A stretch of DNA of 41,054 nucleotides from Actinomycetes bacterium (GCA_024225275.1 JAAEMS010000220.1:1-41054), one strand, 5' to 3'; counted from the first letter of the stretch, positions 3,316 to 38,620 are shown. Numbers and translations: made by a program. Notes: generated by a model not told the origin, from the sequence alone.

Positions 3316-3398
3316 TCGATCGGATCGAGCCCGTCCTGCCTAGAGTCCCATGAGTCGATTGGACGGGTCCCGATTCCGGGACCACAGAGGGGGACACA

Positions 3399-7899: not shown

Positions 7900-7934
7900 T
7901 CTCTCGTTCTTCGCCAGCCAGACAGGAGCCAACC

Positions 7935-9950: not shown

Positions 9951-9952
9951 CG

Positions 9953-14896: not shown

Positions 14897-15835
14897 ATGA
14901 GTACTCTCATCACCGGGGGAACCGGGTTCATCGGGGCCGAGATCGTACGGATGCTGCTGGACCGGGGTGAGGGGCCGATCCATGTGGCCCACCGGTCGGG
15001 CAATTTCGGTCGGCTGACCGGAGTCGAGGACCAGGTCGAGCTCCACCAACTCGATCTGGCCGACCTCGGCGCCGTTGATCGGGTGATCGCGGAGGTGGCT
15101 CCCCGACGGCTGATCCACTTCGGTGCCATCCTCACCGGGCCGGGCGAACAGGACCCCCAGACCCTCCTCCAAGCCAACGCAGTCGGATTCATCCGCACCA
15201 TCGAGGCGGCACGCCTGGCTGGCACCGAGCAGATGATCTTCGCCAGCAGCATCGGTACCTACGGCCGTGACCTCGGCGACGGACCGGTCACCGACCTCTC
15301 GCTCCAACGCCCCAACAGCGTCTACGGAGTAACGAAGGTGTTCGGCGAGAACCTGGGCGCCTACTACCGAACCAAGTACGGCCTCGACTTTCGGGGGCTC
15401 CGGTATCCGTCGATCGTGGGACCGGGGGTCACGACCTGGAGCCTGGCCCAGTACACGAGCTGGATGATCGAGAAGGCCGCCATGGGTGAGCCGTTCGCGG
15501 TGTGGACCGCACCCGAGGCCGTCATCCCCATCCTCTACTACAAGGATGCAGCGCGGGCCGCCCTCGATCTCGGGGCCGCGCCGGCGGAGAGCATCCGGGC
15601 CATCAACTACCTGGTGAACGGTCCGGTACCCACCCCCAACGCCGGCGAGATGGCCGAGGCGGTGCGGGCGAAGGTGGCGGGGGCCGAGATCACCTTCGAG
15701 CCCGACGAGGCCGCGGCAGCAGCTCTGGCCCGGGAGCTGCACATCGACGATGCCGTTGCCCGCCGTGAATGGGGCTGGGAGCCGGCCTTCGATCTCGACG
15801 CCATGATCGACGACGTCATCGCCGAAGTCGGCTGA
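14897..15835 (+). CDS. NAD-dependent epimerase/dehydratase (extended SDR)
   Basis: N-terminal LITGGTGFIGAEIV Rossmann motif; YxxxK region around SVYGVTKVFGE. Confidence 0.85.
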   Translation: MSTLITGGTGFIGAEIVRMLLDRGEGPIHVAHRSGNFGRLTGVEDQVELHQLDLADLGAVDRVIAEVAPRRLIHFGAILTGPGEQDPQTLLQANAVGFIRTIEAARLAGTEQMIFASSIGTYGRDLGDGPVTDLSLQRPNSVYGVTKVFGENLGAYYRTKYGLDFRGLRYPSIVGPGVTTWSLAQYTSWMIEKAAMGEPFAVWTAPEAVIPILYYKDAARAALDLGAAPAESIRAINYLVNGPVPTPNAGEMAEAVRAKVAGAEITFEPDEAAAAALARELHIDDAVARREWGWEPAFDLDAMIDDVIAEVG

Positions 15836-15875
15836 GCGGTACTGTCGGGGTGGATCGCGCCGCAGAGGGGACAAG

Positions 15876-17090
15876 ATGACCGACATCGAGACCGTCCGTA
15901 CCGAGGTGAGGGACTGGCTGGCTGAGAACTGGAGCGAGGCTCTCGACCGGAGGAGCTGGCTCGACACGGTCATCGACTCGGGCTGGGCGGCACCGAGCTG
16001 GCCCGAGCAATGGCACGGCAAGGGACTCGACCCGGCCATGACCAGCGTCGTGATCGACGAGTTCCGGCGGGTCGGTGCCACCGACACGGGGATGGACAAG
16101 ACCCACCTGTGGGCCAACACCGTGCTGGCGTTCGGTAGTGACGACCTGAAGTCGAGGTTCGTCCGCCGACTCATGCTCGGTGACGTCGACATGTGTCTGC
16201 TGTACAGCGAGCCCGGGGCCGGTTCCGATCTGGCGGGCATCCAGACCCGGGCCGTGCGCGACGGCGACGAATGGATCGTCAACGGCCAGAAGGTGTGGAC
16301 CTCGGGTGGTCGGGCGGCCGAGTTCGCCCTGCTCATCACCCGTACCGACTGGGACGTGCCCAAGCACCGGGGCATCACCTTCTTCTGGTTCCCGATGAGA
16401 CAGGACGGGGTCGAGGTCAGGCCCCTGCGCCAGGCCACGGGCGACGCCCGGTTCAACGAGGTGTTCATGACCGATGCCCGGGTCCCCCACGAGAACATGC
16501 TCGGCGACGAGAACAACGGCTGGATGGTGCTCCAGACCGCGCTGGCCTACGAGAGAGCGGTCATGGGCGAGAACCAGCGTCGCCGGCGCGGCCAATCCGA
16601 TGACCAGGCGGTTCGATCGGCCGAAGACGAGAGGTCGGCGCCCGTACCCGACCTCTCCCTGGTCGAGCTGGCCCGCACTGTCGACAAGAACGGTGATCCT
16701 TCCATCCGGCAGGGGCTGGCCCACCTCCACTCGATGGTCCAGGTGAACGAGTGGAACAACCTGCGGGCCAAGGCCGAGCTGGCTCAGGGCACGTCGTCGT
16801 CGGTCGTCTCGCTGGGCAAGCTGGCCATGAGCGGCATCCTGCACACGGCTGGCAGCCTCCAGGAGTCGATCCTGGGGGCCGAGGGGATGATCGGCGGCAC
16901 TGATTCGCCCCGGGCGGCAGACGCCGCCTACTCCCTCCTCAACGCCTTCTTCACCTCGATCGGGGGCGGCACCGACCAGATCCAGCGCAACATCATCGGT
17001 GAGCGCATCCTGGGCTTGCCCAAGGAGCCCGAGCTCGACAAGACGATGGCCTTCCGTGATGTCCCCAAGCCCGACATGGAGCGCCCCTGA
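15876..17090 (+). CDS. Acyl-CoA dehydrogenase (ACAD/FadE family)
   Basis: ACAD N-terminal and middle-domain blocks (LYSEPGAGSDLAGIQTRAVRDGDEWIVNGQKVWTSGG) and a C-terminal helical domain, within a 404-aa protein. Confidence 0.9.
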   Translation: MTDIETVRTEVRDWLAENWSEALDRRSWLDTVIDSGWAAPSWPEQWHGKGLDPAMTSVVIDEFRRVGATDTGMDKTHLWANTVLAFGSDDLKSRFVRRLMLGDVDMCLLYSEPGAGSDLAGIQTRAVRDGDEWIVNGQKVWTSGGRAAEFALLITRTDWDVPKHRGITFFWFPMRQDGVEVRPLRQATGDARFNEVFMTDARVPHENMLGDENNGWMVLQTALAYERAVMGENQRRRRGQSDDQAVRSAEDERSAPVPDLSLVELARTVDKNGDPSIRQGLAHLHSMVQVNEWNNLRAKAELAQGTSSSVVSLGKLAMSGILHTAGSLQESILGAEGMIGGTDSPRAADAAYSLLNAFFTSIGGGTDQIQRNIIGERILGLPKEPELDKTMAFRDVPKPDMERP

Positions 17091-20325: not shown

Positions 20326-20406
20326 CCCCCGAAGTTGAGGCCGATTGCCTCACGGGTGACGCGATCCGCCTCACGTTGGGTTGGGTCGGGTGGGGGCGGG
20401 TGAGCG

Positions 20407-21516
20407 GTGTCGGGCAGACTGGGGGCCATGACCAACGCGGCGACCACCAGCTCGGCCCTGGGTCTGGCCGTGGCCGCGGGGGTACCGGTGCTGCTCTGGG
20501 GGGCACCGGGTACCGGCAAGAGCTCGGCGGTGCGAGCCATGGCCGAATCCATCGGCTGGCCGTGCGAGGTGGTCATCGCCTCGATCCGTGAGCCCACCGA
20601 CTTCGCCGGGCTCCCGGTTGTGGTCGACGATGGCATCCGTTTCGCCCCGCCCACCTGGGCCACCAGGCTGGCCGAGTCCGAGCGCGGGCTTCTGTTCCTC
20701 GACGAGATCTCCACCGCGCCACCCGCCGTCCAGGCGGCCCTCCTTCGGGTGGTGCTGGAACGGGTCGTGGGCGATCTGGATCTGCCCGACAGCATCGCCG
20801 TGGTTGCGGCCGCCAACCCGCCTGACCAGGCGGCCGATGGCTGGGACCTGTCAGCCCCCCTGGCCAATCGCTTCTGCCACCTCGACTGGGACGTCGATCC
20901 GGCGGCGGTGGCCGAGGGTCTGGCCGGCGGATTCCCCGAGCCCACCGTTCCCCAGCTGGCCGGTGAATGGGAGAAGCGCATCACCACCGCCCGGGCCCAA
21001 GTGGCTGCGTTCCTGGTGGTGCGGCCCGGGCTGGTGTCCGCACCGCCCACCGAACGGGCCGCTGCGGGCCGAGCCTGGCCCAGTCCCCGATCCTGGGAGA
21101 TGACGGCCCGCCTCCTGGGCGCCGCCCAGGTCGCCGACTCCGACGGCCCGGTTCGTGCCGCCTTGGTCACCGGATGTGTCGGCCAGGGGGCGGGTATCGA
21201 GTTCCTGTCCTGGCTCGACGAGCTCGACCTGCCCGATCCCGAGGCGGTGCTGGCCGACCCGGGCTCGTTCGTCCTGCCCGAGCGGGGTGACCGGGCCTAC
21301 GCGGTGCTCACCTCGGTGGCCGCCGCGGTGGCGGCCGACACCACGCCCGAACGGTGGGCCGCCGGTTGGGTGGTACTGGGCCAGGCCGGCGAAACCGCTC
21401 CCGATGTTGCCGCGGTGGCTGCCCGCATCCTGGCCCGGTGCCGGCCCGAGGGTGCCTCGGCCCCACCCCAGGCCGCGGCCTTCGTACCCCTCCTAGAGCA
21501 GGCCGGACTGCTCTGA
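20407..21516 (+). CDS. MoxR-family AAA+ ATPase (AAA_5)
   Basis: Walker A LLWGAPGTGKSS, PTD motif (REPTDFAGLP), Walker B LLFLDEISTA, QAALLRVVLER, sensor ANP (VVAAANPPD) and LANRF. GTG start at 20407; alternative ATG at 20428. Confidence 0.85.
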   Translation: MSGRLGAMTNAATTSSALGLAVAAGVPVLLWGAPGTGKSSAVRAMAESIGWPCEVVIASIREPTDFAGLPVVVDDGIRFAPPTWATRLAESERGLLFLDEISTAPPAVQAALLRVVLERVVGDLDLPDSIAVVAAANPPDQAADGWDLSAPLANRFCHLDWDVDPAAVAEGLAGGFPEPTVPQLAGEWEKRITTARAQVAAFLVVRPGLVSAPPTERAAAGRAWPSPRSWEMTARLLGAAQVADSDGPVRAALVTGCVGQGAGIEFLSWLDELDLPDPEAVLADPGSFVLPERGDRAYAVLTSVAAAVAADTTPERWAAGWVVLGQAGETAPDVAAVAARILARCRPEGASAPPQAAAFVPLLEQAGLL

Positions 21517-21520
21517 CCGG

Positions 21521-22714
21521 GTGGTTGACCCCGTGACCCACAGCCCGCTCCCGGCCCTCGACGGGGAGAAGGTGGCCGCCGCGAGGCTCCACGCCATCGA
21601 TCGCTTCCCTTACCTGGCGTCAGCCCTGTTCGCCGCCCCGATCCTCGAAGCCGACGAACTGGGTCGCCTCATGGTCGATGAGTGGTGGCGGATCCATGCC
21701 GATCCGGTGACCGTCGACCAGCTGTCGGTCCCGGAGTTGGCCGGTGAGCTGCTACACCTGACCGGCCACCTCCTGCGCGATCACGCGGCCCGGGCTCGAA
21801 CCGTGGGGTTCGACGAGGCCACCGAGCTGCACCACTGGGTCGACGCGGCCGACGCAGAATTGGTCGACGATCTGCCGGCCGATCTGCAGGCTCTGGCGGC
21901 GGTGCACCCCGAGGATCTGGGCTGCGAGGACGGGCGTCTGGCCGAGGAGTACTACCGGCGCGGCCTGCCCCGAGAAGGCATGGAGAACAACTGTGGGAGC
22001 GGAGCCCACGGGCGACACGCCCCCTGGGAGCCCCCGCCCCCGAGCGATGGCGGCGAAGGTTTGGAGCGTGATCAACAGGAGCTGGTCCGCCGCCGGGTCG
22101 CCGAAGACGTACTTCGTCACGCCAACGAGGCCACCAAGGGTTTGCGCCGTTGGGCCCAGGAAGCTGTGGGCAGCCAGGTCGACTGGCGTCGGGAGCTGGC
22201 CTCCGAGCTGAGGCGCAGTATCTCGTGGGTCAGCGGTGCCGTCGACTACAGCTGGGCCCGTCCCAGCCGTCGTGCCGTCGCCCTCGGGCCGGTGGTATTG
22301 CCCTCCTTGCGCCGGCCCGTCCCCGAAGTGGCGGTGGTGGCCGACACCAGCGCATCGGTGTCGGACGAACTGCTGGGTGAGGCAATGGCCGAGGTCGACG
22401 GCCTGCTGAGGGCGGTGGGGGTCCGGGATGTCCGGGTGTTGGCGTGTGACGACGCGGTCCGAGGGGTGAGCCGGGTCCGCCAGGTCGAGGACATCACCCT
22501 GCTGGGCGGGGGTGGCACCGACATGGGAGTGGGCCTCGAAGCCGCCCTCGACCACCGGCCCCGCCCCCAGGTGGTGGTCGTGCTGACCGATGGGTGGTCG
22601 CCGTGGCCGGAAGCGCCCCTGCCCGGCACCCGGGTGGTGGTGGGTCTGTTGGGATCCGATCCTTCGCCTCCTCCCTCATGGTGTCGGACGGTCGCCATCG
22701 GGGATGCCCTGTGA
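21521..22714 (+). CDS. VWA-domain protein, DUF2201-like (N-terminal putative metallopeptidase-like domain plus C-terminal von Willebrand A)
   Basis: MIDAS DxSxS motif in VAVVADTSASVSDEL, then LTDGWSPWP near the end. It begins 5 nt after the MoxR stop. The N-terminal region has HLTGHLLRDH but no clean HExxH. Confidence 0.8.
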   Translation: MVDPVTHSPLPALDGEKVAAARLHAIDRFPYLASALFAAPILEADELGRLMVDEWWRIHADPVTVDQLSVPELAGELLHLTGHLLRDHAARARTVGFDEATELHHWVDAADAELVDDLPADLQALAAVHPEDLGCEDGRLAEEYYRRGLPREGMENNCGSGAHGRHAPWEPPPPSDGGEGLERDQQELVRRRVAEDVLRHANEATKGLRRWAQEAVGSQVDWRRELASELRRSISWVSGAVDYSWARPSRRAVALGPVVLPSLRRPVPEVAVVADTSASVSDELLGEAMAEVDGLLRAVGVRDVRVLACDDAVRGVSRVRQVEDITLLGGGGTDMGVGLEAALDHRPRPQVVVVLTDGWSPWPEAPLPGTRVVVGLLGSDPSPPPSWCRTVAIGDAL

Positions 22715-27362: not shown

Positions 27363-29849
27363 TCAGAGGGGCCGGCCCTCGATATCGAGGTAGTCGAGCG
27401 ACAGGTGGCGTTCTGCGTCGAGGGCGGCCATCTCGTCGTCGCCCAGTCCCAGCAGGCCCCGGTAGATCTCGTCGTTGTCGGCCCCCATACGATTGAGCGG
27501 GCCCCAACAAAGGTCGGGCCCGTCCCAGTGCCACAGGTGTCCGGGGAGGAGGTAGGGCGGGACGTCGGGCGAGCTGTTCTCACGGAAGAAGCCCCGGGCC
27601 GCCAGCTCGGGGTCGGCCAACAGGTCGGCTTCGTCGAGCACTGGGCCCACGGTCACGCCCAGCTCACGCAGGCGGGCCGCGAGCTCGTCGCGATCGAAGC
27701 TGGCCGACCATTGGGCGAGCCGGTCGTCGAGGAGGTCGTGCTGGGCTCGGCGGCCCGTCTCGGTGGCCAACCCGGGGTCGAGGGCCCAACCGGGGGAGTC
27801 CATGGCTTGGACCAGGGCCGCCCACTCGGTGTCGTTGGCCACCGTGATGGCGATCCATCGGTCTTCGCCGGAGCAGGGATACACCCCTTGGGGCGCCAGG
27901 TGGGGGTCGCGGTTGGCGTGACGGTCGTGGGGTTCGCCGGTGAGGGAAGTGTCGACGAGATACTCACCGATGTAGTTGAGCAGGTTCTCGGCCTGAGCCA
28001 ACTCGATGAGCTCGCCGTGACCGGTGCGTTCCCGCCGGCGGAGGGCGGCGAGGATGGCGAACGTGGCCGCCGCGCCGCTGGCGGGATCCATGAAATAGGT
28101 GGAGTCGAGGGCCGAGGGATCGAGATCGAGGTAGCCCCGGAGTGAGGTCAGCCCACAAATGGCCTCCATATGAGCTCCGAACCCGATGTAGTCGGAGTAG
28201 GGCCCTTCGAGGCCCAGGGAAGGCAGGCGGGCCGCGATCAGCCGGCTGTTGCGGGCGTGGAGCTCGTCCCAGCCCAGGCCCAGGGTGTCGAGCACCTTGG
28301 CTGAGTTGTTCTCGACGAACACGTCGCTCTGCTCGACCAGGCGCAGGAACGTCTCGCGACCGAGCTGGGTGCGCAGGTCGAGCGTGGCGCCCTTCTTGCC
28401 CCGGGCGTGGCATACGAACGCACCCACCCGGTTCCAGGGGCGCTCACCCCCCTCATCACCGGGGAACACACCCCAGTACTGACCCAAGTCGGCCTCGTGG
28501 CCGGGCCGGGGTCGGGGGATGGCCCCCCGGGTGGCGGTGGGGAACAGGTTCGGATTGTCGAGCCGGATGACCTCGGCCCCCAGGTCGCCGAGAAGGGCGG
28601 TGCAGAGGGGTCCGGCCCACACGACGGTCAGGTCGAGGACGCGGACTCCCTCGAGGGGGAGGCGGCGTTCGCCGGCCGGTGTTCGGGCGGCCCGCTCCGG
28701 CGGGGGTGCTGCCCTCAGTTCGGCGGTGTGCTGACCCAGGGTGGGCGAGGGCCGCCGCGGGACCCATCCATCGGTCATCCGGATCTGGGGACCCGGTGCT
28801 TCGAACTTGCCGGCGACCGGATGATCCACTGGGGTCCAGAACCCTCGGCTCCGGAAGTGATCGTCGGCCAATACGTCGGTGGTGGAGTTCAGCGGGGTGA
28901 CGGCCAGCTGCCGGGCCTGGGCGTCCTCCATGGTCTGCTGGCTCGTGCGGGTGAGTGTCCAGCCGAAGATGGCCTCGTTGAGCAGCCCCGGTATCTCGTC
29001 GTCTTCCATCCAGTCGGGCTGGGCGATTCGTTCCTGTAGCTCCTCATGGCCCAGCATCTCGGCCACTCGGGGCATCCAGTTGGGGGCGAACACGATCTGG
29101 GTGTAGCCGTCGAGGGTGGGGTAGATGCCGGCCGGGATCAGGCCCTCGCGGTGGCCACCCTCGCGCTCTCCCAGCCGGCCGGTGAACACATGGCGTACCA
29201 GGAGGGCGATACGGCGGTCGATCGAGCCCGCCTGGGTCTCGAAGTTGGAGACGTCGACATGGGTTCCCTGCCCCGACGCCTCGGCCATGGCCACTGCCGC
29301 CAGGGTGGCCGCCGCCGCCACCGCCCCGCACTGGTATTGGATGATGTTGCCGGCCAACCTCACCGGCTCCCGATCGGGCGACCCGGTGGAGCTGAGGGGT
29401 CCGGCCATGGCGTAGGTCGTGAGCTCGCTGGCCGGCCACCCGGCGTAGGGGCCGGTGCGACCGAAGGGGGTGACGCTGGTGACCACGAGACCCGGGTAGC
29501 GGGCCCCCAACTCATCGGGGTCGAGGCCCGGAGGTGACCGGCCCGGGACCGAGGACTCGATGACCACGTCGGCGCCGGCGATGAGGTCCGCGAGCAGGGC
29601 CCGGTCCTCGTCGGCCTCCTCGTCGATGACGACCGACCGCTTGTTGCGGTTCAGATGGAGGAAGAGGGGGCTGCGTTCCGGGTCGGGTCGCGGCCCGGGC
29701 CGGGGACTCTCGCTCCGGGACGGGTCGCCGGTGGGCGGCTCGACCTTGATGACATCGGCTCCGTAGTCGGCCACCAGCTTGCCCGTGTAGGGGCCGGCGA
29801 TCCCGGTGGCGAGCTCGACCACCACGAGCCCGGCGAGGGGTTGTTCCAT
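27363..29849 (-). CDS. Tandem-fused double family III CoA-transferase (two CaiB/BaiF domains in one 828-aa polypeptide)
   Basis: Two separate N-terminal-type CoA-binding motifs: LAGLVVVELATGIAGPYTGKLVADYGADVIKVE at the N-terminus and LEGVRVLDLTVVWAGPLCTALLGDLGAEVIRLD near residue 400. Each is followed by the family III large and small domain blocks. Confidence 0.85.
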   Translation of the reverse strand: MEQPLAGLVVVELATGIAGPYTGKLVADYGADVIKVEPPTGDPSRSESPRPGPRPDPERSPLFLHLNRNKRSVVIDEEADEDRALLADLIAGADVVIESSVPGRSPPGLDPDELGARYPGLVVTSVTPFGRTGPYAGWPASELTTYAMAGPLSSTGSPDREPVRLAGNIIQYQCGAVAAAATLAAVAMAEASGQGTHVDVSNFETQAGSIDRRIALLVRHVFTGRLGEREGGHREGLIPAGIYPTLDGYTQIVFAPNWMPRVAEMLGHEELQERIAQPDWMEDDEIPGLLNEAIFGWTLTRTSQQTMEDAQARQLAVTPLNSTTDVLADDHFRSRGFWTPVDHPVAGKFEAPGPQIRMTDGWVPRRPSPTLGQHTAELRAAPPPERAARTPAGERRLPLEGVRVLDLTVVWAGPLCTALLGDLGAEVIRLDNPNLFPTATRGAIPRPRPGHEADLGQYWGVFPGDEGGERPWNRVGAFVCHARGKKGATLDLRTQLGRETFLRLVEQSDVFVENNSAKVLDTLGLGWDELHARNSRLIAARLPSLGLEGPYSDYIGFGAHMEAICGLTSLRGYLDLDPSALDSTYFMDPASGAAATFAILAALRRRERTGHGELIELAQAENLLNYIGEYLVDTSLTGEPHDRHANRDPHLAPQGVYPCSGEDRWIAITVANDTEWAALVQAMDSPGWALDPGLATETGRRAQHDLLDDRLAQWSASFDRDELAARLRELGVTVGPVLDEADLLADPELAARGFFRENSSPDVPPYLLPGHLWHWDGPDLCWGPLNRMGADNDEIYRGLLGLGDDEMAALDAERHLSLDYLDIEGRPL

Positions 29850-29880
29850 GGCGGGGGACGTTAGCCAGCCTGCAAGGTGC

Positions 29881-30906
29881 TCACAGGCGGCGCTCGGCGG
29901 CCTGGGTGGCCGCTTCGACGAGACCGGGCATCTCGGCCTGGAGACCCAACTCGGGACGGGCGTCCAGCCAGGCCACCAGCATGAGGTGACGGATCAGCAG
30001 GAAGGTGTCGATGAGGGTGACCTGATCATCGCTGAGCGGTCGGACCTCGCGGTAGCCCTGGACCAGGGCCTGGCGGGCCGCGACCTCGTAGGGCTCGCCC
30101 ACCGATGGATGGAGGGCAACCGCAAGCTCGTGGGCGTACCAGCCGTATCCGGCATCGTCGAAGTCGATCATGACCAGCCGGTCGTCATCGGTGACGAGCA
30201 CATTGTGGAGGTGGAGATCGGCATGAATGAGCCCATAGTCATCGGTGGTGGCCAGCCCGGCCAGTACGTCGTGGGTGGATGCTCGGGCCCGGAGGAGGAG
30301 ATCGGCCTGGGCGGGGGTGAGGCCATCGACTTCCCAGAAGCGACCCCACAGCGGGTCCTGCCCCACCAGACCGGCGACATCCCAGGACCGGCGGCTGAAG
30401 TCCGGCGGCCGTGGCCAACGCTCGGAGACGTCGTGTACCCGAGCGGCCAGCGCCCCGAGCCGGCGGTGGTGTTCGGCGGCCCGGCTGGAGTCGTGGGCCA
30501 GGGACTCCCCGAGGGGGCTGCCATCGATCCATTCGATGACCCCGACTTCGCGTTGCTCGGACCCTACGGGGAAGGCCCGGTAGAACTCGCCGTGCCGATT
30601 GGGGAGGGCACCGGGGAGATCGAGCCCGGCTTCGCGGAGCGCCGATACCCACGCCACCTCGGACTCGAGCTCGGCCCGCGAGTTGTAGCCCGGGCGATGG
30701 AGGCGCAGAGCGACCGGGCCCTGGGCGCCGGCCCTCTCGGCCCGGAACACGGCGTTCTCCTGGATGGCCACCAACTCGATCGACCCGGCGTCGAGGTCCC
30801 ATTCGACGGCCGCAGCTCGGGCCGCGGCCGCCAGTTCGGGGGTGGGGGTGGGCTTACGCTCGAACACTGGTGGCGGGGACGGCGTCGATCGCGTCAGAGA
30901 AGGCAT
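29881..30906 (-). CDS. APH/homoserine-kinase-II-like small-molecule kinase
   Basis: Brenner and Mg-binding motifs LIHADLHLHNVLV...LVMIDFDDAGYGWYAHELA. The ATG at 30906 would overlap the upstream aminotransferase by 53 nt; an in-frame GTG at 30867 gives a 14-nt overlap. Confidence 0.75.
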   Translation of the reverse strand: MPSLTRSTPSPPPVFERKPTPTPELAAAARAAAVEWDLDAGSIELVAIQENAVFRAERAGAQGPVALRLHRPGYNSRAELESEVAWVSALREAGLDLPGALPNRHGEFYRAFPVGSEQREVGVIEWIDGSPLGESLAHDSSRAAEHHRRLGALAARVHDVSERWPRPPDFSRRSWDVAGLVGQDPLWGRFWEVDGLTPAQADLLLRARASTHDVLAGLATTDDYGLIHADLHLHNVLVTDDDRLVMIDFDDAGYGWYAHELAVALHPSVGEPYEVAARQALVQGYREVRPLSDDQVTLIDTFLLIRHLMLVAWLDARPELGLQAEMPGLVEAATQAAERRL

Positions 30907-32152
30907 CGAGGAAGAGGTCGGCGTGCTCGTCGTTGAACACGAGCGGGGGTCGGACCTTGAGCACGTTGCGGTGCTGTCCGGCCTGGCCCATGAGGATGCC
31001 CCGCTGGCGCATGGCCTCGACCACGCGGGCCGCTCCGTCGGGGTCGGGGGTGTTCGAATCGGGGTCGGTGACCCACTCGACGCCGATGAACAGGCCGTGG
31101 CCGCGCACGTCGGCCAGAGCAGGATGCTCGAGCGCGTCGAGGCCGGCCCGGAGATGGGCTCCGACCCTGGACACCTGGCTCACCAGGTCGCCGCTCTCGA
31201 TCTCCTCGAGTACGGCGTTGCCGGCCGCAGCCTGTAGCGGGCTTCCCGCGTAGGTGTTGAAGTACCGGCGGGTACGTCGAAAGCCGCTGACCAGCTCATG
31301 GCTGGCTGTCACGCCCGACACCGGTAGGCCGTTGCCCATTGGTTTGCCCATGGCGACGATGTCGGGCTCGAACCCCGAGGTCTGGTATCCCCACCACCGA
31401 CCGCTGCGGGCGAAGCCGGCCTGAACCTCATCGGCGATGAACAACCCACCCGCCTCGTGTACGAGCTCGACTGCCCCTTCCATGAAGCCGGCGGGGATGC
31501 GGGGGAGGCCCTCGTTGGCCATGATCGAGCAGGCGATCATGCCGGCGAAGCCCACCCCGTCGGCCTCGAACGCCGCGATCTGGGTTTCGAGCTCGGACAG
31601 GTAGAGGGCGGTGAGCTCGGTGTCGGTGAGGCCGGGGGCCAGGGGCCGGAAGAGTTGGGGGGTGGGGATGGACCGGAACTCGGGGTGGGGGCTGGATGCG
31701 TTGACCGACGACAGCCTGGTCAGCTTGCTGACCTCCTCGGTGTTGCCGTGGTAGGTGGCGTCGGTGCCGATGATCCCCCGGCCGCCGGTGGCGCCCCTGG
31801 CCATCATGAGGGCGATCTCGATGGCCTCCGAGCCCGAGCAGGCGAACACGACGCTCTCGAACTGGTCGTGGTGGAGCCCGAGGAGCCGTTCGCCGTACTC
31901 GATCACCCCTTGGTGGAGGTAGCGGCTGTGCACATTGAGGGTGCGGGCCTGCTGGTACATGGCCTCGGCCACCCGGGTATTGCCGTGTCCCACACAAGGC
32001 ACATTGTTGTACACGTCCAGATAGCGGTCGCCGTCAGCGGTGTGGAGCCAGACCCCGTCACCCTCGGTGAGCTCGAGGGGTTCGTCGTAGAAGAGGGGAG
32101 TGGCGTCGCCGAGAATGCGGTCGTGTCGGGCCCGGAGCCCATCGGGGGCCAT
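30854..32152 (-). CDS. Class III PLP-dependent aminotransferase-fold enzyme; candidate O-phospho-aminoalcohol phospho-lyase or aminotransferase
   Basis: YLDVYNNVPCVGHGNTRV, GSEAIEIALMMAR, the DEVQAGFARSG motif (DEV.. of class III) and the PLP lysine region GKPMGNG. Confidence 0.85.
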   Translation of the reverse strand: MAPDGLRARHDRILGDATPLFYDEPLELTEGDGVWLHTADGDRYLDVYNNVPCVGHGNTRVAEAMYQQARTLNVHSRYLHQGVIEYGERLLGLHHDQFESVVFACSGSEAIEIALMMARGATGGRGIIGTDATYHGNTEEVSKLTRLSSVNASSPHPEFRSIPTPQLFRPLAPGLTDTELTALYLSELETQIAAFEADGVGFAGMIACSIMANEGLPRIPAGFMEGAVELVHEAGGLFIADEVQAGFARSGRWWGYQTSGFEPDIVAMGKPMGNGLPVSGVTASHELVSGFRRTRRYFNTYAGSPLQAAAGNAVLEEIESGDLVSQVSRVGAHLRAGLDALEHPALADVRGHGLFIGVEWVTDPDSNTPDPDGAARVVEAMRQRGILMGQAGQHRNVLKVRPPLVFNDEHADLFLDAFSDAIDAVPATSVRA

Positions 32153-32158
32153 CGGGAC

Positions 32159-32635
32159 TCAGGCTCCGGGCCGGAAGACCATCAGGTAAAGCAGGATCAG
32201 GAGGAGCACCGTGAGGATGACACCACCCAGATCGACCTTCGACTTGGCCATCCGGTTGCCGGTGCCGTAGGCCCGTTCGGCCGGATACAGCAGGCCGTGC
32301 AGGACACCGTTCATGGCCACCCAGACCACCATGGCGGCCACGATCCAGCCGTCGCTCATGGAGTAGACGCTGGTGTCGCCCCCGGCGGGATCGCCGCTCA
32401 TGCCCACCAGCCCGAAACCCAGGATCCCGGCCAGAGCCAGGGCGGGTCCATGGATGCGCTGGGTGCCGATGGCCTGGAACGACCGGACGGTGGAGGCGGC
32501 GCCCTGATCGATGTCGTCCATTCGGCGATCGAGTATCGGGTTGATGAAGGCCGGAGCGAAGGCGGCCAGCACGCACAGGATGTGCAGGAACAACACGATG
32601 TTGTAGGGCGTGTCACGGTACGCAGCGAGAATCAT
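32159..32635 (-). CDS. Small integral membrane protein (four TM helices), first gene of the minus-strand operon
   Basis: Hydrophobic helices throughout. It lies 6 nt upstream of the aminotransferase start on the same strand. Confidence 0.6.
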   Translation of the reverse strand: MILAAYRDTPYNIVLFLHILCVLAAFAPAFINPILDRRMDDIDQGAASTVRSFQAIGTQRIHGPALALAGILGFGLVGMSGDPAGGDTSVYSMSDGWIVAAMVVWVAMNGVLHGLLYPAERAYGTGNRMAKSKVDLGGVILTVLLLILLYLMVFRPGA

Positions 32636-32730: not shown

Positions 32731-32751
32731 AAGGGTGATCTGATCACCCTT
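32731..32751. promoter_or_regulatory. Perfect 21-bp palindrome AAGGGTGATC-T-GATCACCCTT
   Basis: Read directly from the sequence. It lies 2 nt downstream of the MOSC stop codon and about 95 nt upstream of the minus-strand operon start (32635). It is an operator-like dyad or a short terminator hairpin. Confidence 0.3.
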
Positions 32752-32752
32752 C

Positions 32753-33613
32753 TCACCCGAATTTCGCCAGAGGGGCGGTGGTTTCGTCGACTTCGACGGG
32801 GTCCCCGACGGTCAGATCGGTGCCAGTGGGACCGATGGCACAGCCGATGCCGAACAGGCCGCTGCCCTCCAGGGCGCCCCGCCACCGCGCGGGAGCAGCC
32901 GAGGCGTCGGTACACCAACGGTGGGCCTTCAGGGCCAGAGCCGGCTCCTTGTGGCGTTCGGCGGTGTCCTGGTCGATCTGGGGAATGGGGCATCGGGGCC
33001 AGGGGCTGCCGGTGGTGACGGAAGCGGCTCCTACCCGGAAGCGCGACCAGGTGTCTTCGACCCACGCTTCGTCGGTGTCGACCACCAGGTTGGGGCGGAA
33101 GCGGTCCATACCGAATGGTTCGGACGCCCTCTCGTTCAGCCACGCCAGCGACGCGGTGTTGGCGACCAGTACGGGAGCGGCATCGGCAAACGAGACGTCC
33201 TGGTCGAACACGTCGAAGCCGCCGGGAAGGCGCCACTGGGTGGCGCCGACGAAGGCGGTCAGGCGGGCTGGCTCGCCGAACAGATCGCAGAACCAGGCGG
33301 CAACGTCATCGCCCGCGTCACCGACCTCGACCGGCACCTTGAACAGGGTCCGCACCGTGGCCGATGCATCAGTCGGGTGCGGCACCTCGATGGGCTGGCG
33401 GCCAGGAGCCTCGAGCCGGAGACCCCCGCTGATCAGGGTGGGTTGCACGGTGGCCATCACCGGGTGCTGACGCTGGGTGATGGGCTCACCTTCGGGGGTG
33501 GTGACCTGCCACTCACGGTCGTGTTCGATGCCCCGGACCGAGACCCGGGCCGTCTCTACCTCGAGTCGGTGACAGGACTTGATGGGGTGGATGTGGATGC
33601 TGGCCAGCTGCAT
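32753..33613 (-). CDS. MOSC-domain protein (MOSC_N beta-barrel plus MOSC)
   Basis: N-terminal MQLASIHIHPIKSC (YcbX-type MOSC_N) and a conserved Cys-containing C-terminal MOSC region. Confidence 0.85.
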   Translation of the reverse strand: MQLASIHIHPIKSCHRLEVETARVSVRGIEHDREWQVTTPEGEPITQRQHPVMATVQPTLISGGLRLEAPGRQPIEVPHPTDASATVRTLFKVPVEVGDAGDDVAAWFCDLFGEPARLTAFVGATQWRLPGGFDVFDQDVSFADAAPVLVANTASLAWLNERASEPFGMDRFRPNLVVDTDEAWVEDTWSRFRVGAASVTTGSPWPRCPIPQIDQDTAERHKEPALALKAHRWCTDASAAPARWRGALEGSGLFGIGCAIGPTGTDLTVGDPVEVDETTAPLAKFG

Positions 33614-33754
33614 CGCGGGATCGTACCGGCCTGGCCGTCAGCCCATGCACCGCAGGAAGCGCCAACCATCCGAAACATGTCGGATAAGGGTGCCTACACA
33701 ACCTTTCCCAGGCGAATTTCGGGTGTGGGGGGTCCGGCGTGCGAGCATGGCCGG

Positions 33755-34636
33755 ATGGCGAACGCAACCGTGGGTCCTGTCGAGCTGCACTACGAAGAAT
33801 TCGGAGATGGCAATGACCCGCCCTTGCTGATGGTCATGGGCTTGGGTGCGCAGATGATCGTGTGGCCCGACGAGCTGTGCCAGGGCCTGGTCGACCGAGG
33901 CTTCCGGGTCATCCGTTTCGACAATCGCGACGTGGGCATGTCGACCTGGTTCGACGGCGTTGAGGTCGACATGGCCGCGGCCGTCACCGCCGGCATGATG
34001 GGCCAGCCCTTCGACGGCGCCCCCTACAACCTCTCCGACATGGCGGCCGACGCCATCGGGCTGCTCGACCATCTCGATATCAGCCAGGCCAACATCGTGG
34101 GGGCCTCGATGGGCGGCATGATCGTCCAGACCATGGCCATCGAACACGGCGACCGCATCGCCAGCCTGTGCTCGATCATGTCGAACACCGGCAACCCCGA
34201 GTTCGGTGCCCCCACCCCCGACGCCATGGGCGCCCTGCTCAGTCCGGGACCGACCGAACGTGAGGCCGCCATCGAGCACAGCGTGGGGGTATCGAAGGTG
34301 ATCAGCAGCGCCGCCCACTTCGACGAGGACGATGTGCGGGCCCGGGCCGCCGCCCACTACGACCGCGGGTTCAACCCCGATGGGGTGACCCGTCAGGTCG
34401 CCGCCATCATGGCGTCGGGCAGCCGCGAGGAGGGCCTCCAGGCTCTCGATCTGCCCACTCTGGTCATTCATGGTGCCCAAGACCCCCTGATCACCCCGAC
34501 CGGCGGCGAGCGTACGGCCGAGCTCGTGCCCGACGCCGAGCTGTTGATGCTCGAGGAGATGGCCCACGACCTCCCGATCCCGTTGTGGGGGCCGATCATC
34601 TCCTCGATCACTTCCAACGTGATACGGGTGGCATGA
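33755..34636 (+). CDS. Alpha/beta-hydrolase fold protein (copy 1)
   Basis: HG-type oxyanion region LLMVMGLGAQ and nucleophile elbow GASMGG. The ATG at 33755 is in frame. The track ORF start at 32921 is a long spurious 5' extension antisense to the MOSC gene. Confidence 0.8.
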   Translation: MANATVGPVELHYEEFGDGNDPPLLMVMGLGAQMIVWPDELCQGLVDRGFRVIRFDNRDVGMSTWFDGVEVDMAAAVTAGMMGQPFDGAPYNLSDMAADAIGLLDHLDISQANIVGASMGGMIVQTMAIEHGDRIASLCSIMSNTGNPEFGAPTPDAMGALLSPGPTEREAAIEHSVGVSKVISSAAHFDEDDVRARAAAHYDRGFNPDGVTRQVAAIMASGSREEGLQALDLPTLVIHGAQDPLITPTGGERTAELVPDAELLMLEEMAHDLPIPLWGPIISSITSNVIRVA

Positions 34637-35514
34637 GCCGCACGGCGCGCAGTGGCGCGGTCGAGCTCGTGTACGAGACCTTCGGTTCGCCGGAGGATCC
34701 GACCCTCCTCCTGGTGAACGGCCTCGGGTCCCAGATGATCGCCTGGGCCCCCGGCATGGTCGATGCGTTCGTCACCGAGGGGTTCCATGTCATCCGCTTC
34801 GACAACCGCGATGTCGGCCTCAGCACCTGGCTCGACGAGTTCGACATCGACGTCGTCGGCACCCTGAAACGGGTCGAGGCCGGTGAGTCGGTCGACGTGC
34901 CCTATGACCTGTCCGACATGGCGGCTGACGCGGTGGCGGTCCTCGACGCAGCGGGCATCGACCGGGCCCACATCCTCGGGGTGTCGATGGGCGGGATGAT
35001 CGTCCAGACCATGGCCATCGAGTACCCCGAGCGGGTCGCCACCCTCACCTCGGTCATGTCGCGCACCGGTGAGGCTGACTACGGCGTATCGACCCCCGAG
35101 GCCAGCCGGGGCCTCATGTCACCGGCGCCGGCCGAGCGCAGTGCCGTCATCCAGCACACGGTCGACACCGGCCGCTTGTGGGCCAGCCCCGACTGGTACG
35201 ACGAGGATCGGGCCCGCGCCCGCGCTGCCGCAGCCTATGACCGGGCCCATCACCCGATCGGAGTGGGCCGCCAGATGCTGGCGGTACGGGCCTCGCCCGA
35301 CCGGACCGAGGGGCTGCGGGAACTCGATGTCCCGACCCTGGTCATCCATGGCGCCTCCGATACCCTCATCCCACCCGACGGGGGTGAGCGGACGGCCGAG
35401 CTCATACCCGGCGCCGAGCTCTTGCTCATCGAGGGGATGGGCCACGACTATCCACCCGAGGTCTGGCCCAGCTGGGCCACGGCCGTGCGGGCCCTGCGTG
35501 ACCGCGCCGATTGA
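34633..35514 (+). CDS. Alpha/beta-hydrolase fold protein (copy 2, tandem paralog)
   Basis: ATGA overlap with copy 1. Roughly 50% identity to copy 1 (VELVYETFGSPEDPTLLLVNGLGSQMIAW / RFDNRDVGLSTW / GVSMGGMIVQTMAIE). Confidence 0.8.
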   Translation: MSRTARSGAVELVYETFGSPEDPTLLLVNGLGSQMIAWAPGMVDAFVTEGFHVIRFDNRDVGLSTWLDEFDIDVVGTLKRVEAGESVDVPYDLSDMAADAVAVLDAAGIDRAHILGVSMGGMIVQTMAIEYPERVATLTSVMSRTGEADYGVSTPEASRGLMSPAPAERSAVIQHTVDTGRLWASPDWYDEDRARARAAAAYDRAHHPIGVGRQMLAVRASPDRTEGLRELDVPTLVIHGASDTLIPPDGGERTAELIPGAELLLIEGMGHDYPPEVWPSWATAVRALRDRAD

Positions 35515-35551
35515 CAAGACCAAGATCACACCGACACAAGGGACACACCAC

Positions 35552-36700
<1,149 letters not shown>

Positions 36701-36702
36701 TC

Positions 36703-37494
36703 ATGGCAACCCTCGTCACCTTCCACGCCCACCCCGACGACGAGGTCATCGCCACCGGCGGCCTGATGGCCAACGCAGCGGCGGCCGGCCACCGGGTGGT
36801 GCTGGTTTTGGCCACCCGGGGTGAGCAGGGCGAGCCGGTCGAGGGAATCCTCGACGACGACGAGCATCTTCACCACCGACGCTCCGACGAAGCCGAGGAG
36901 GCGGCCCGCATCCTGGGGGTGGAACGCGTCGAGTTTCTCGAGTACGTCGACTCGGGAATGATGGGCGAGTCGTCGAACGATCATCCCGATTCGTTCTGGC
37001 GGGCCGATGTCGAGGAGGCCGCCGGGCGGCTGGCCAAGCTCCTGAGCGGCTTGCGGGCCGACGTTCTCACCATCTACGACGACCACGGCGGCTACGGCCA
37101 CCCCGACCACATCCAGGTTCATCGGGTGGGGTCAGCGGCGGCGCGGCTGGCCGGTACGGAAGGAGTGTTCGAAGCCACCATGAACCGCACCGAGATCATG
37201 AAGCAGATGGCCGAGGCTCCCGACCTGCCCGCCGATTTCAGCGAGGACGAGATTGCCCAGTTCGGTACCCTCGAGCACCAGCTGACCCACGGCGTTCGGG
37301 TGGGTGAGGCCATAGATCTCAAACGCCAGGCCATGGCCGTCCACCGCAGCCAGATCAGCGAGCAGTCGTTCTTCCTGGCCATGGAACCCGAACCGTTCGC
37401 CGTCGCCTTTGGCACCGAGTGGTTCATCGAGCACGGAGCAACCGACCACTCGGCCGGCCCCCGTTACCTCGATCTCCTGCCCGGACTCCATTGA
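36703..37494 (+). CDS. PIG-L/LmbE-family N-acetylglucosaminyl deacetylase-like protein
   Basis: The AHPDDE motif at the N-terminus, and HPDH at the zinc site. It starts 3 nt after the mcr stop. Confidence 0.8.
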   Translation: MATLVTFHAHPDDEVIATGGLMANAAAAGHRVVLVLATRGEQGEPVEGILDDDEHLHHRRSDEAEEAARILGVERVEFLEYVDSGMMGESSNDHPDSFWRADVEEAAGRLAKLLSGLRADVLTIYDDHGGYGHPDHIQVHRVGSAAARLAGTEGVFEATMNRTEIMKQMAEAPDLPADFSEDEIAQFGTLEHQLTHGVRVGEAIDLKRQAMAVHRSQISEQSFFLAMEPEPFAVAFGTEWFIEHGATDHSAGPRYLDLLPGLH

Positions 37495-37507
37495 CGGTGC
37501 GCCGCTG

Positions 37508-38620
37508 ATGGGTTGGGTCCACCACGGCTTCGGCCAGCAGATCATCGTCGGTGGCGGCGAGGCCCTCGGTTCGCTACGCGACCTGCCCCGGATCACCGGG
37601 GCCCGCCGTCTCCTGTTGGTCACCACCCCGAACCGGCTGGCCGACGAAGCATCGATCCCCGTGGTGAGGGCCCTGGGCCGCAATCTGGCCGCTACCTTCG
37701 ACCGGGTAGAGGCCCACGTGCCCACCCCCAGCATCCAGGCCGCTATCTCGCTGGCTCGGGCCGAGAACATCGATGGAGTCGTGTCCTTGGGCGGTGGATC
37801 AGCGGTCGACACCGCCAAGGCGGTGGCCTGGTTCCTCGAAAAGGAAGCGGGTACCCCCGGCACCCATGTGCTCGACCGCCCCGCGGTACCCCACCTGGCT
37901 GTACCGACCACGCTGGCCGGAGCCGCCTTCACCGGCGAGTTCGCCATGACCGACCCCCGCTCCGGCGCCAAGGATCTCGCCGGCGGGCCCACCGCGGTAC
38001 CCCGCGGGGTGATCGTGAATCGCGACGCGGTGGCGGCAGTCGATCGGGGCTTCCTGCTGTTGACCGGATTCACCGCCCTGGCTCACGCCCTCGAGACCTC
38101 GTGGTCCACCCAGCGCACCCCCGAAGCCGGTGCCCTGGCGGCCGCGGCCTCGGGCCGGCTGTTGGCCGCTCTCTCCGCCGCCGTCGACTCGGACCCGATC
38201 GACGCGGTGATCATCGAGGAGCTCGTCGATGGGGCGGTACTGGCGGGGCGGGCCCGGCAGAACGCGGTTGTTGCCCTGCACCACGAGCTGGTGCGGGTGG
38301 CCGGTGGTCGTAGTGGGATGGCCGACGGACTGCTCCACGCCCTGCTCCTGCCCCACACCCTGCGTTTCAATGATCTTGCCATCGAAGAGACCGCGGGCCG
38401 GCTGGCCGAGCAGGTGGTTGACGGCTTGGATCTGTCCACCATCGTCGCTGATCTGGCTTCCGCGGCGCGAGCCACCGGCGGTCTGAGCGATCACGGGTTC
38501 GACGACGACATGCTCGAGGCGGTCGTGCGCACCGTGGCGTCGAGCCCGGCCGTCGAGCGCAACCCCATGCCCGTCGGCGAAGGCGACATCCGCGGCATCC
38601 TCGAGTCCGCCTGGGTGTAG
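37508..38620 (+). CDS. Iron-containing (group III) alcohol dehydrogenase / maleylacetate-reductase-like oxidoreductase
   Basis: GGGSAVDTAKAVA dinucleotide-binding motif and a conserved His cluster in the C-terminal half. ATG at 37508 is in frame. The track ORF start at 37409 is an extension into the PIG-L gene. Confidence 0.8.
   Translation: MGWVHHGFGQQIIVGGGEALGSLRDLPRITGARRLLLVTTPNRLADEASIPVVRALGRNLAATFDRVEAHVPTPSIQAAISLARAENIDGVVSLGGGSAVDTAKAVAWFLEKEAGTPGTHVLDRPAVPHLAVPTTLAGAAFTGEFAMTDPRSGAKDLAGGPTAVPRGVIVNRDAVAAVDRGFLLLTGFTALAHALETSWSTQRTPEAGALAAAASGRLLAALSAAVDSDPIDAVIIEELVDGAVLAGRARQNAVVALHHELVRVAGGRSGMADGLLHALLLPHTLRFNDLAIEETAGRLAEQVVDGLDLSTIVADLASAARATGGLSDHGFDDDMLEAVVRTVASSPAVERNPMPVGEGDIRGILESAWV

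Follow-up and report, generated by a model that had tools for sequence, protein, structure and literature searches.

A candidate phospho-lyase and amino-alcohol kinase cassette next to a fused CoA-transferase gene in an Actinomycetes bacterium

The DNA analysed here, called the window below, is a stretch of 41,054 nt from an Actinomycetes bacterium (GCA_024225275.1 JAAEMS010000220.1:1-41054), in which four minus-strand ORFs are closely packed at 27363-32635 (Table 1). Pfam matches were strong for three of the four (the PLP enzyme, hereafter AT, the kinase and the CoA-transferase), and GC3 was 0.83-0.88 in all of them, which together with the ~69% GC of the genome is as expected of real genes. 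The membrane-protein and AT genes are 6 nt apart ('tga gtcccg atg') and the kinase and CoA-transferase genes 31 nt apart, while AT and kinase overlap, by 53 nt if the kinase starts at its first ATG and by 14 nt if it starts at the GTG at 30867. The ORF calls thus bear out a preliminary description of this DNA, which gave four co-directional genes with gaps of this size and an overlap of 14-53 nt. The GTG start is favoured, as it matches the 328-aa call and the 14-nt overlap in L001, a relative with 83% identity and the same four-gene order, hence the kinase is likely a protein of 328 aa. A MOSC-domain gene lies on the same strand 117 nt upstream of the membrane-protein gene. It is found upstream in L001 too, where an AMP-binding ligase gene and an MFS gene intervene before the membrane-protein gene.

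Table 1. Genes of the locus and the gene upstream of it, in window positions.
Feature	Position	Strand	Product and domain matches
Membrane protein	32159..32635	-	158 aa; Pfam/NCBIfam: no match
Aminotran_3 PLP enzyme (AT)	30854..32152	-	432 aa; Pfam Aminotran_3 (PF00202) 231.7 bits, residues 26-422
APH-family kinase	29881..30906	-	341 aa from first ATG; Pfam APH (PF01636) 92.9 bits
Fused double CoA-transferase	27363..29849	-	828 aa; two CoA_transf_3 stretches, 562 bits total
MOSC-domain protein	32753..33613	-	286 aa; Pfam MOSC_N + MOSC

The best PDB matches of AT were the phospholyase 5G4I (342 bits, E 6.5e-101) and ETNPPL, 6TOR (261 bits, 1.4e-76). The third-best match had an E of 3e-46, and transaminases, racemases and epimerases all scored ~161 bits or less. 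A1RDF1 (Arthrobacter aurescens TC1, 5G4I/5G4J) and human ETNPPL/AGXT2L1 (6TOR) are O-phosphoethanolamine phospho-lyases (EC 4.2.3.2), and AT shares with them the class-III fold, the NNV..VGH block, MGKPMGNG and the NVLK.(R/K)PP C-terminal block. Identity was only 41-42% to A1RDF1 and 36-37% to ETNPPL, and 24-27% to ordinary class-III aminotransferases. In a neighbour-joining tree, made without bootstrap and with few outgroups, AT, A1RDF1 and ETNPPL form one clade, from which the ordinary class-III aminotransferases stand apart. By both bit scores and tree AT thus falls with the characterised phospho-lyases and away from the transaminases, as the preliminary description had expected. Among NCBIfam models the best matches were the kinase-AT fusion families PRK06148/PRK06149. 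The RefSeq and JGI names are 'aspartate aminotransferase family protein' or '4-aminobutyrate aminotransferase-like'.

The residues of the class-III fold are in place, with the PLP-Lys in MGK270PMGNG and the Asp pairing with the pyridine nitrogen in AD241EVQ; both motifs align with 5G4I and 6TOR and are invariant across 20 homologues. The YLDVYNNVPCVGH block pointed to earlier was also found in AT. In the signature block after the YLD motif, AT reads YNNVPCVGH against NNV(A/P)HVGH, so that a Cys stands where A1RDF1, ETNPPL and the rhizobial homologues have His; this Cys is itself invariant in the 20-sequence alignment. We predict AT (432 aa) to be an O-phospho-amino-alcohol phospho-lyase of the AGXT2L/ETNPPL/A1RDF1 clade, and the Cys-for-His replacement in the NNVP-H-VGH block means that its activity or substrate could differ.

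For the kinase, the best PDB match was 6EF6 (145 bits, E 3.9e-41), an aminopropanol kinase (PMC7314540), and the second was amicoumacin kinase at 57 bits. The HADLHLHN and IDFDD of the kinase align with HADLRLAN and IDFDD of 6EF6, that is, with the HxDxxxxN catalytic loop and the DxD metal-binding motif. Models of antibiotic APHs scored far under their cut-offs, as with APH(9)-Ia (17 bits against 680). The kinase is thus nearest to 6EF6 among solved structures and lies away from the antibiotic APHs, and we predict it to be an amino-alcohol kinase with an APH fold.

Further, the synteny of the pair was followed in related genomes, and the co-localisation that the preliminary description had anticipated was confirmed. 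Of 84 informative related loci, 72 have a kinase gene directly 3' of AT, on the same strand and no more than 300 nt away. The pair was found in Acidimicrobiales, Poribacteria, Chloroflexota, Alpha- and Gammaproteobacteria, and in annotated relatives the start and stop of AT and kinase overlap by 8-23 nt. As the order AT-then-kinase is kept in so many loci across many phyla, we regard the pair as a conserved cassette. On RefSeq plasmids its two genes are annotated 'aminotransferase' and 'phosphotransferase', and an APC permease, SDR or ALDH is encoded close by; in Pseudomonas and rhizobial loci it is accompanied by amine permeases. The conserved unit is limited to the AT/kinase pair, 32152..29881, which by its sequences appears to be a widespread relative of known pairs of amino-alcohol kinase and phospho-lyase. 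The lyase-like AT, the aminopropanol-kinase-like kinase and their co-localisation are the opposite of what the preliminary description had named as evidence against itself, namely grouping with ordinary transaminases and antibiotic APHs and no conserved pairing. Its view of a PLP enzyme acting together with a kinase is therefore supported by lyase grouping, kinase relatives and pair conservation alike.

The reading we favour, at a probability of about 0.7, is that of a two-gene lyase-kinase cassette with the CoA-transferase and the membrane protein as juxtaposed non-partners. The cassette would most likely convert a 1,2-amino alcohol to an aldehyde, ammonia and phosphate. The kinase would use ATP to phosphorylate the hydroxyl of the amino alcohol, with ethanolamine, 1-amino-2-propanol or a substituted relative as candidate substrates. 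The PLP enzyme would then form an external aldimine with the substrate amine, take off the alpha proton and eliminate phosphate, and the released enamine would hydrolyse to the aldehyde and ammonium. The AT and kinase genes are probably translationally coupled.

Several known systems resemble parts of the cassette. The aminoacetone-utilisation (RMM) microcompartment of M. smegmatis, attributed to Mallette & Kimber 2018, reportedly holds a (S)-1-amino-2-propanol kinase, a phospho-lyase, a dehydrogenase and an aldehyde dehydrogenase. Like the cassette it combines a kinase with a class-III lyase, and its kinase, 6EF6, is closer to ours than any other solved structure by a wide margin; unlike it, the window has the order lyase then kinase, and its operon lacks a shell domain, SDR and ALDH. 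Since no BMC shell, SDR or ALDH domains were detected among the window ORFs of at least 80 aa scanned with Pfam, an RMM-type microcompartment locus was rejected. Some relatives of the cassette are arranged SDR-AT-kinase-ALDH, reportedly the same set of genes that M. smegmatis uses for aminopropanol. A hydroxylysine kinase (HYKK/AGPHD1) is likewise said to be matched by a 5-phosphohydroxylysine phospho-lyase (PHYKPL/AGXT2L2), as attributed to Veiga-da-Cunha et al. 2012. For both AT and the kinase the best-scoring models are those of the kinase-AT fusions, AT aligning to 591-1011 of PRK06148 and to 548-967 of PRK06149 and the kinase to 10-302 of PRK06149, whereas in the window the genes are separate and in reverse order. 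With 369 and 316 bits against family cut-offs of 1128 and 973, the window proteins lie outside the PRK06148/PRK06149 families.

The CoA-transferase was described at first as a double one, and Pfam indeed finds two full family-III domains in it. By sequence and fold its N-terminal half matches BbsE (best match 9FN0_A) and its C-terminal half BbsF (9FN0_B). The column of the catalytic Asp, Asp169 of CaiB/Frc, which forms acyl-anhydride and CoA-thioester intermediates (PMC9196870), holds Gln172 in the N-terminal half and Asp588 in the C-terminal half. In the alignment 4ED9, YfdE and 10UH have their Asp opposite D588, which is invariant in 40 orthologues, and fused homologues carry Asp at this column in 18/18 C-terminal domains against 1/18 N-terminal ones. 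In BbsE the position is likewise not Asp, while for BbsF the title of 9FOL names a D178-CoA adduct; this D178 falls one residue off D588 in the ungapped phmmer alignment. The AF2 model (pLDDT 91.3, pTM 0.94) gave BbsEF chains as best Foldseek matches, with target-normalised TM of 0.82-0.91 against BbsE, BbsF, SUGCT and YfdW. Sequence and model thus point to a single-chain BbsE/BbsF-like pseudo-heterodimer with a single working active site at Asp588. BbsE and BbsF are two subunits, compared with one fused chain here, and identity is ~30-34% outside any toluene-degradation context; with Pfam scans of the window finding no bbs-type neighbours, a benzylsuccinate CoA-transferase orthologue was rejected.

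It was also proposed that the double CoA-transferase is attached to the cassette, and in its wider form this alternative makes the four genes one pathway: the lyase aldehyde would become an acid and then, by the fused CoA-transferase, an acyl-CoA, with the membrane protein importing the substrate. The four genes are close together on one strand, also in L001, and L044, a gammaproteobacterial MAG, has SDR-AT-kinase-fused-CoA-transferase with a CoA-transferase only 32% identical, an arrangement independent of that in the window. Single CoA-transferase genes abut AT in L004 and L005, and two Caulobacteraceae loci have fused ones within 3-4.5 kb. Given the 31-nt gap and the arrangements in L044, L004 and L005, a genuine link to CoA is still conceivable, and the fused CoA-transferase is probably co-transcribed with the cassette in this lineage. 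However, its closest orthologues (72, 68 and 67% identity) lie elsewhere, in a synteny of their own with adenine glycosylase and with AT and kinase absent nearby; the AT-kinase pair was absent from all 80 of the more distant loci with fused or paired CoA-transferases; and CoA-transferase density was flat with distance from the cassette, with no enrichment. With four CoA-transferase genes in the window, chance adjacency is likely. The operon also has no aldehyde dehydrogenase, the nearest aldehyde-handling candidate being an Fe-ADH ~5 kb away on the opposite strand.

The membrane protein, which judged by eye seems to have some four hydrophobic segments, is related to UPF0093/DUF2269, and its homologues bear precomputed PF03653/PF10027 matches. 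Its gene adjoins AT in the window and L001 only, and homologues of 51-54% identity are found beside SecA/AdoHcyase or 2-oxoglutarate dehydrogenase genes, which are housekeeping contexts unrelated to the cassette. We therefore consider the one-pathway alternative unlikely, and neither the CoA-transferase nor the membrane protein held up as part of the module. The fused CoA-transferase looks, by these comparisons, like a juxtaposed independent gene, a lineage-specific neighbour that is no conserved partner of the cassette. The membrane-protein gene, probably co-transcribed in this lineage, looks like another.

A narrower proposal, that cassette and fused CoA-transferase act jointly on an amino-hydroxy carboxylic acid, as or toward a CoA thioester, both in this lineage and, independently, in L044, seems to us very doubtful. 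If true, the kinase/PLP-lyase pair would represent the PLP-dependent equivalent of 'phosphorylate then eliminate', the strategy of ACAD10/11-Lva for acyl-CoAs. Its most specific form has the amino-hydroxy acid loaded on CoA, the acyl-CoA hydroxyl phosphorylated by the kinase, and phosphate and ammonia eliminated by the PLP enzyme. Precedents are the hydroxyacyl-CoA kinase LvaA and the ACAD10/11 kinase domains, the latter of which phosphorylate 4-hydroxyacyl-CoAs, followed by elimination (PMC12440821, PMC11342911). ACAD genes adjoin the cassette in six related loci (L002, L036, L040, L052, L065 and L081), and a second window kinase (APH+DUF6285) immediately follows a split CoA-transferase pair of BbsE/F-like type. 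Yet the operon kinase resembles the free amino-alcohol kinase 6EF6 and has no significant similarity to the DUF6285 kinase, CoA enzymes are missing from the surroundings of most cassette loci, and the amine permeases of the Pseudomonas and rhizobial cassettes argue for free small amines, which makes this CoA-bound chemistry highly improbable. In the LvaA/ACAD10-ACAD11 systems the kinase is fused or adjacent to an ACAD, whereas the nearest ACAD of the window (15807-17090) is ~13 kb away on the opposite strand. With no ACAD beside the kinase, and ACADs abutting the cassette in some relatives only, membership of that type was rejected. As a weaker form of the CoA-linked proposal, the Cys-type subfamily could, judged from the altered block, act on a substrate class other than ethanolamine or aminopropanol.

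Finally, that AT is an ordinary omega-transaminase, racemase or epimerase beside an unrelated resistance or protein kinase, paired incidentally, as the database names and the Cys-for-His change might suggest, is hardly credible given the low antibiotic APH scores, the lead of over 100 bits that the lyase matches have on every transaminase or racemase match, and a pair kept throughout so many phyla.

Within a known type of two-enzyme module, the PLP enzyme (AT) and the kinase encoded next to it constitute a new subfamily that is uncharacterised and very widespread. Among all PDB sequences the top match to the AT was the Arthrobacter phospho-lyase A1RDF1 (5G4I; E 6.5e-101, 342 bits), followed by the human ethanolamine-phosphate phospho-lyase ETNPPL (6TOR; 1.4e-76, 261 bits), and to our knowledge these are the sole solved phospho-lyases. 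An isoleucine 2-epimerase came third with 161 bits, and GABA transaminases scored about 130-148 bits. Identities to A1RDF1 and ETNPPL amounted to 41-42% and 36-37%, and those to ordinary class-III aminotransferases to 24-27%. A simple NJ tree without bootstrap placed A1RDF1 and ETNPPL in one clade with the window AT, its relatives and the homologues from rhizobia and Pseudomonas. Between phospho-lyases and transaminases, the choice posed in the preliminary description, these comparisons favour the former. The best NCBIfam models were the kinase-aminotransferase fusion families PRK06148 and PRK06149, followed by ordinary transaminase models (at most 210 bits); as the scores to the fusion families were far under the cut-offs, the window proteins are not members of them.

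The active site of the AT retains the PLP lysine (MGK270PMGNG) and the ADEVQ motif. Residue C53 is a Cys where the NNVP-H-VGH block has His in A1RDF1, human ETNPPL and the rhizobial homologues, and this Cys is invariant in the window AT and its 19 aligned relatives (alignment A1). The register of the C-terminal motif, compared with a transaminase paralogue for the 'carboxylate-binding Arg' position, varies between class-III subgroups. In three loci without an adjacent downstream kinase (L077, L081 and L083) the position of C53 is occupied by Asn, Val or Thr, and in L077 and L083 a PLP decarboxylase lies upstream instead.

For the kinase the best solved relative by a wide margin was 6EF6 (E 3.9e-41, 145 bits; next match 57 bits), an aminopropanol kinase (PMC7314540). 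The catalytic loop HADLHLHN and the motif IDFDD align with their 6EF6 counterparts, and the NCBIfam models for antibiotic APHs gave negligible scores.

To follow the pair in other genomes we used an alignment of AT homologues to scan species-representative genomes, one for each species, and at least 586 matched stretches encoded AT relatives. The best 80 of these came from Acidimicrobiales, Poribacteria, Dehalococcoidia, Caldilineaceae and many Alpha- and Gammaproteobacteria, cultured Pseudomonas and Reyranella included. Together with six loci from protein look-up they gave 84 informative loci, and in 72 of these a kinase ORF lay downstream of the AT, on its strand and at most 300 nt away. ORFs at high-GC loci were called by GC3, since a greedy choice of the longest ORF yielded shadow ORFs. 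Where relatives are annotated, the AT and kinase genes share 8-23 nt of sequence. The expected synteny is thereby confirmed, and neither a grouping with ordinary transaminases, nor one with antibiotic APHs, nor a lack of co-localisation, the three observations held to speak against the module, was found. The hosts are marine, sponge-associated and soil bacteria, and on RefSeq plasmids the pair is annotated merely as 'aspartate aminotransferase family protein' and 'phosphotransferase'; once substrates are assigned to the subfamily, nitrogen and amine scavenging in these bacteria would be better annotated.

Deamination of amino alcohols by a kinase and a phospho-lyase is an established route which needs neither B12 nor oxygen, and the aminopropanol route of M. 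smegmatis reportedly uses the same kinase-then-lyase chemistry. From the family placement and the pairing found here we infer that the kinase would phosphorylate the hydroxyl of a 1,2-amino alcohol, and that the PLP enzyme would then eliminate phosphate and ammonia to leave an aldehyde. Such elimination is documented for ETNPPL and PHYKPL (PMC8154272). The window locus is not an RMM microcompartment locus, as no shell, SDR or ALDH domains occur among the window ORFs scanned (80 aa or longer), nor is it a bbs system.

An assumption-free clustering of all the ORFs lying up to 7 kb from the pair revealed no third universal partner. The most frequent neighbours were ABC ATPases (18 loci), SDRs (16), CoA_transf_3 proteins (14), ACADs (11), TauD-like dioxygenases (10), luciferase-like oxidoreductases (9), family-5 solute-binding proteins (8), sulfatases (7) and ALDHs (5). 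An amino-acid/amine permease lies immediately upstream of the pair in Pseudomonas loci, one Sinorhizobium plasmid carries APC permease, AT, kinase, SDR and IclR together, and one or two Gammaproteobacteria MAG loci show the order SDR-AT-kinase-ALDH (L076; L086 less tightly). Such surroundings are consistent with free small amino alcohols being taken up and broken down.

The dioxygenases, of the TauD/TfdA-like Fe/2-oxoglutarate type, are found a few kb from the pair (L009, L010, L011, L015, L022, L053, L060 and others, sponge-associated Poribacteria among them) and in L053 and L060 they immediately follow the kinase; a nearby hydroxylase could make the amino alcohol which the cassette then deaminates. 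Further, His-type cassette homologues of 45-46% identity lie in surroundings resembling aromatic-amine islands. L173 (R. leguminosarum pRL9b4) holds hpaR, hpaD, hpaE, a PLP-dependent decarboxylase, a second class-III aminotransferase and an ALDH; L175 (Shinella) holds the decarboxylase, second aminotransferase and ALDH without hpa genes, and L174 (Pseudosulfitobacter) only hpaR and the second aminotransferase. This suggests that the His-type rhizobial pair may turn aryl-ethanolamines (octopamine, noradrenaline) into arylacetaldehydes, a reaction reported long ago in Pseudomonas as 'octopamine dehydratase'. No HpaD or HpaR homologues occur in the window or in 86 close-subfamily loci, hence we confine the proposed aromatic-amine role to the His-type rhizobial subfamily and do not extend it to the window pair.

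The pair was described as part of a four-gene operon, and the arrangement itself is accurate: ORFs, domains and GC3 (0.83-0.88 in all four genes; window GC about 69%) support four co-directional genes, and the gaps of 6 nt (membrane protein/AT) and 31 nt (kinase/CoA-transferase) are exact. The two ends of the 14-53 nt AT/kinase overlap correspond to two candidate kinase starts, the GTG at 30867 (14 nt) and the first ATG (53 nt); the shorter overlap agrees with the gene call in L001, an 83%-identical relative from a related MAG. The reading of the block as a single pathway was not supported, as orthologues or homologues of the CoA-transferase and the membrane protein were found in other contexts. 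What looks like operon logic is chiefly a matter of juxtaposition, in a genome with a great many CoA-transferase genes, and the main value of the analysis for the window is corrective, against an appealing four-gene operon reading.

Features of the window, with the genes of the minus-strand block first
Feature	Position	Strand	Content or basis
Membrane protein, 158 aa, hydrophobic	32635..32159	-	ORF
AT, 432 aa	32152..30854	-	Aminotran_3 (Pfam)
Kinase, 341 aa	30906..29881	-	APH (Pfam)
Fused CoA-transferase, 828 aa	29849..27363	-	two CoA_transf_3 domains (Pfam)
Split CoA-transferase pair	3354-5704 (3354-4472, 4310-5704)	+	BbsE-like/BbsF-like
507-aa ORF	5617-7140	+	APH + DUF6285
709-aa protein, then 1648-aa protein	7821-14872	+	SPFH/Band-7; DUF3686 ('ATPase involved in DNA repair'), DUF7902, AAA
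AAA ATPase, then DUF2201 protein	20404-22714	+	MoxR-like; VWA-like + putative metallopeptidase
Perfect palindrome	32734-32748		GGTGATC-T-GATCACC, extendable to 9+1+9
Divergent cluster beyond MOSC	33638-38620	+	two alpha/beta hydrolases, CoA-transferase, PIG-L-family deacetylase, Fe-dependent alcohol dehydrogenase
CoA-transferase gene in the span of that cluster	~35.5-36.7 kb		

Both halves of the fused CoA-transferase are full family-III domains; the best match is BbsE (9FN0_A) for the N-terminal half and BbsF (9FN0_B) for the C-terminal half, both of benzylsuccinate CoA-transferase. The catalytic nucleophile of family-III enzymes is a strictly conserved Asp (PMC9196870). D588 in the C-terminal half aligns with the catalytic Asp of 4ED9, YfdE and 10UH and is invariant in 40 orthologues, while the N-terminal column holds Gln172 (Tyr in BbsE); in the fused homologues compared, Asp occupies this column in all 18 C-terminal domains and in 1 of the 18 N-terminal ones. 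BbsF D178, whose CoA adduct is recorded in the title of 9FOL, falls one residue off D588 in an ungapped phmmer alignment. The AlphaFold model is confident overall (pLDDT 91.3, pTM 0.94), and its halves superpose on the BbsF and BbsE chains. With these half-by-half matches and Asp only C-terminally, the protein is a single-chain BbsE/F-like pseudo-heterodimer with one predicted active site.

Whether this enzyme serves the pair was weighed for two models jointly, one in which the aldehyde is oxidised to an acid and activated to acyl-CoA, in line with the first proposal, and one in which kinase and lyase act on a CoA-bound amino-hydroxy acid. Besides the short gap, L001 keeps the gene order of the window, the gammaproteobacterial MAG locus L044 reads SDR-AT-kinase-fused-CoA-transferase (its fused enzyme merely 32% identical), two Caulobacteraceae loci have fused CoA-transferases 3-4.5 kb from the pair, and single CoA-transferases abut the AT in L004 and L005. 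However, the three closest long-contig orthologues (72, 68 and 67% identity), found by protein search and contig look-ups, carry neither AT nor kinase within 8 kb, and an adenine glycosylase gene lies 2-4 kb downstream of the CoA-transferase in the 72% and 68% orthologues and the window alike. The enzyme therefore has its own conserved neighbourhood, with the cassette beside it only in the window/L001 lineage. A metagenome scan with the fused CoA-transferase alignment reached only distant relatives (identity 41% or less), a good number of them on short contigs, and says little on true orthologues; of its 80 loci with a fused or paired CoA-transferase, not one carried the pair. CoA-transferase gene density at 0-1.5 kb from the cassette was about that at 3-6 kb, the window alone has four such genes, and the operon is without an aldehyde dehydrogenase to connect the aldehyde with a CoA-transferase substrate. 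A true pathway link thus seems unlikely, and the CoA-bound route, analogous to ACAD10/11-Lva, we regard as quite unlikely. One further lead was dropped: in L080 an orthologue of the other CoA-transferase in the window (66% identity) lies 5.9 kb from a cassette, with mobile or defence-like genes in between.

The split pair and the APH + DUF6285 ORF make a second juxtaposition of family-III CoA-transferase and APH-fold kinase in the window. The latter kinase shows no significant similarity to the operon kinase; a kinase of its type occurs 1.5 kb from a split pair at one of the 80 metagenome loci, L114.

The membrane protein gave no Pfam match of its own, and its homologues carry weak UPF0093/DUF2269 matches. 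The window and L001 are the only loci where it adjoins the AT, and homologues of 51-54% identity adjoin SecA/AdoHcyase or 2-oxoglutarate dehydrogenase genes, which argues against its place in the module; the sole tie to the pathway is the 6-nt gap. In L001 (4623-7485) an AMP-binding acyl-CoA ligase and an MFS transporter lie between the MOSC and membrane-protein genes, both absent there in the window.

Searches for Rfam families and tRNAs found none, and promoter or terminator matches did not rise above background. The palindrome follows closely on the stop codon of the MOSC gene, some 100 nt ahead of the gene for the membrane protein, and was not found in L001 or any other retrieved locus. 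The divergent cluster is matched in L001 (1-3639) except for the alcohol dehydrogenase, the locus stopping short of that position; it may cooperate with the cassette, e.g. by de-N-acetylation of a precursor. Elsewhere, the SPFH/Band-7 and DUF3686 proteins form an unusually large pair, and the genes at 20404-22714 are a typical MoxR-VWA pair.
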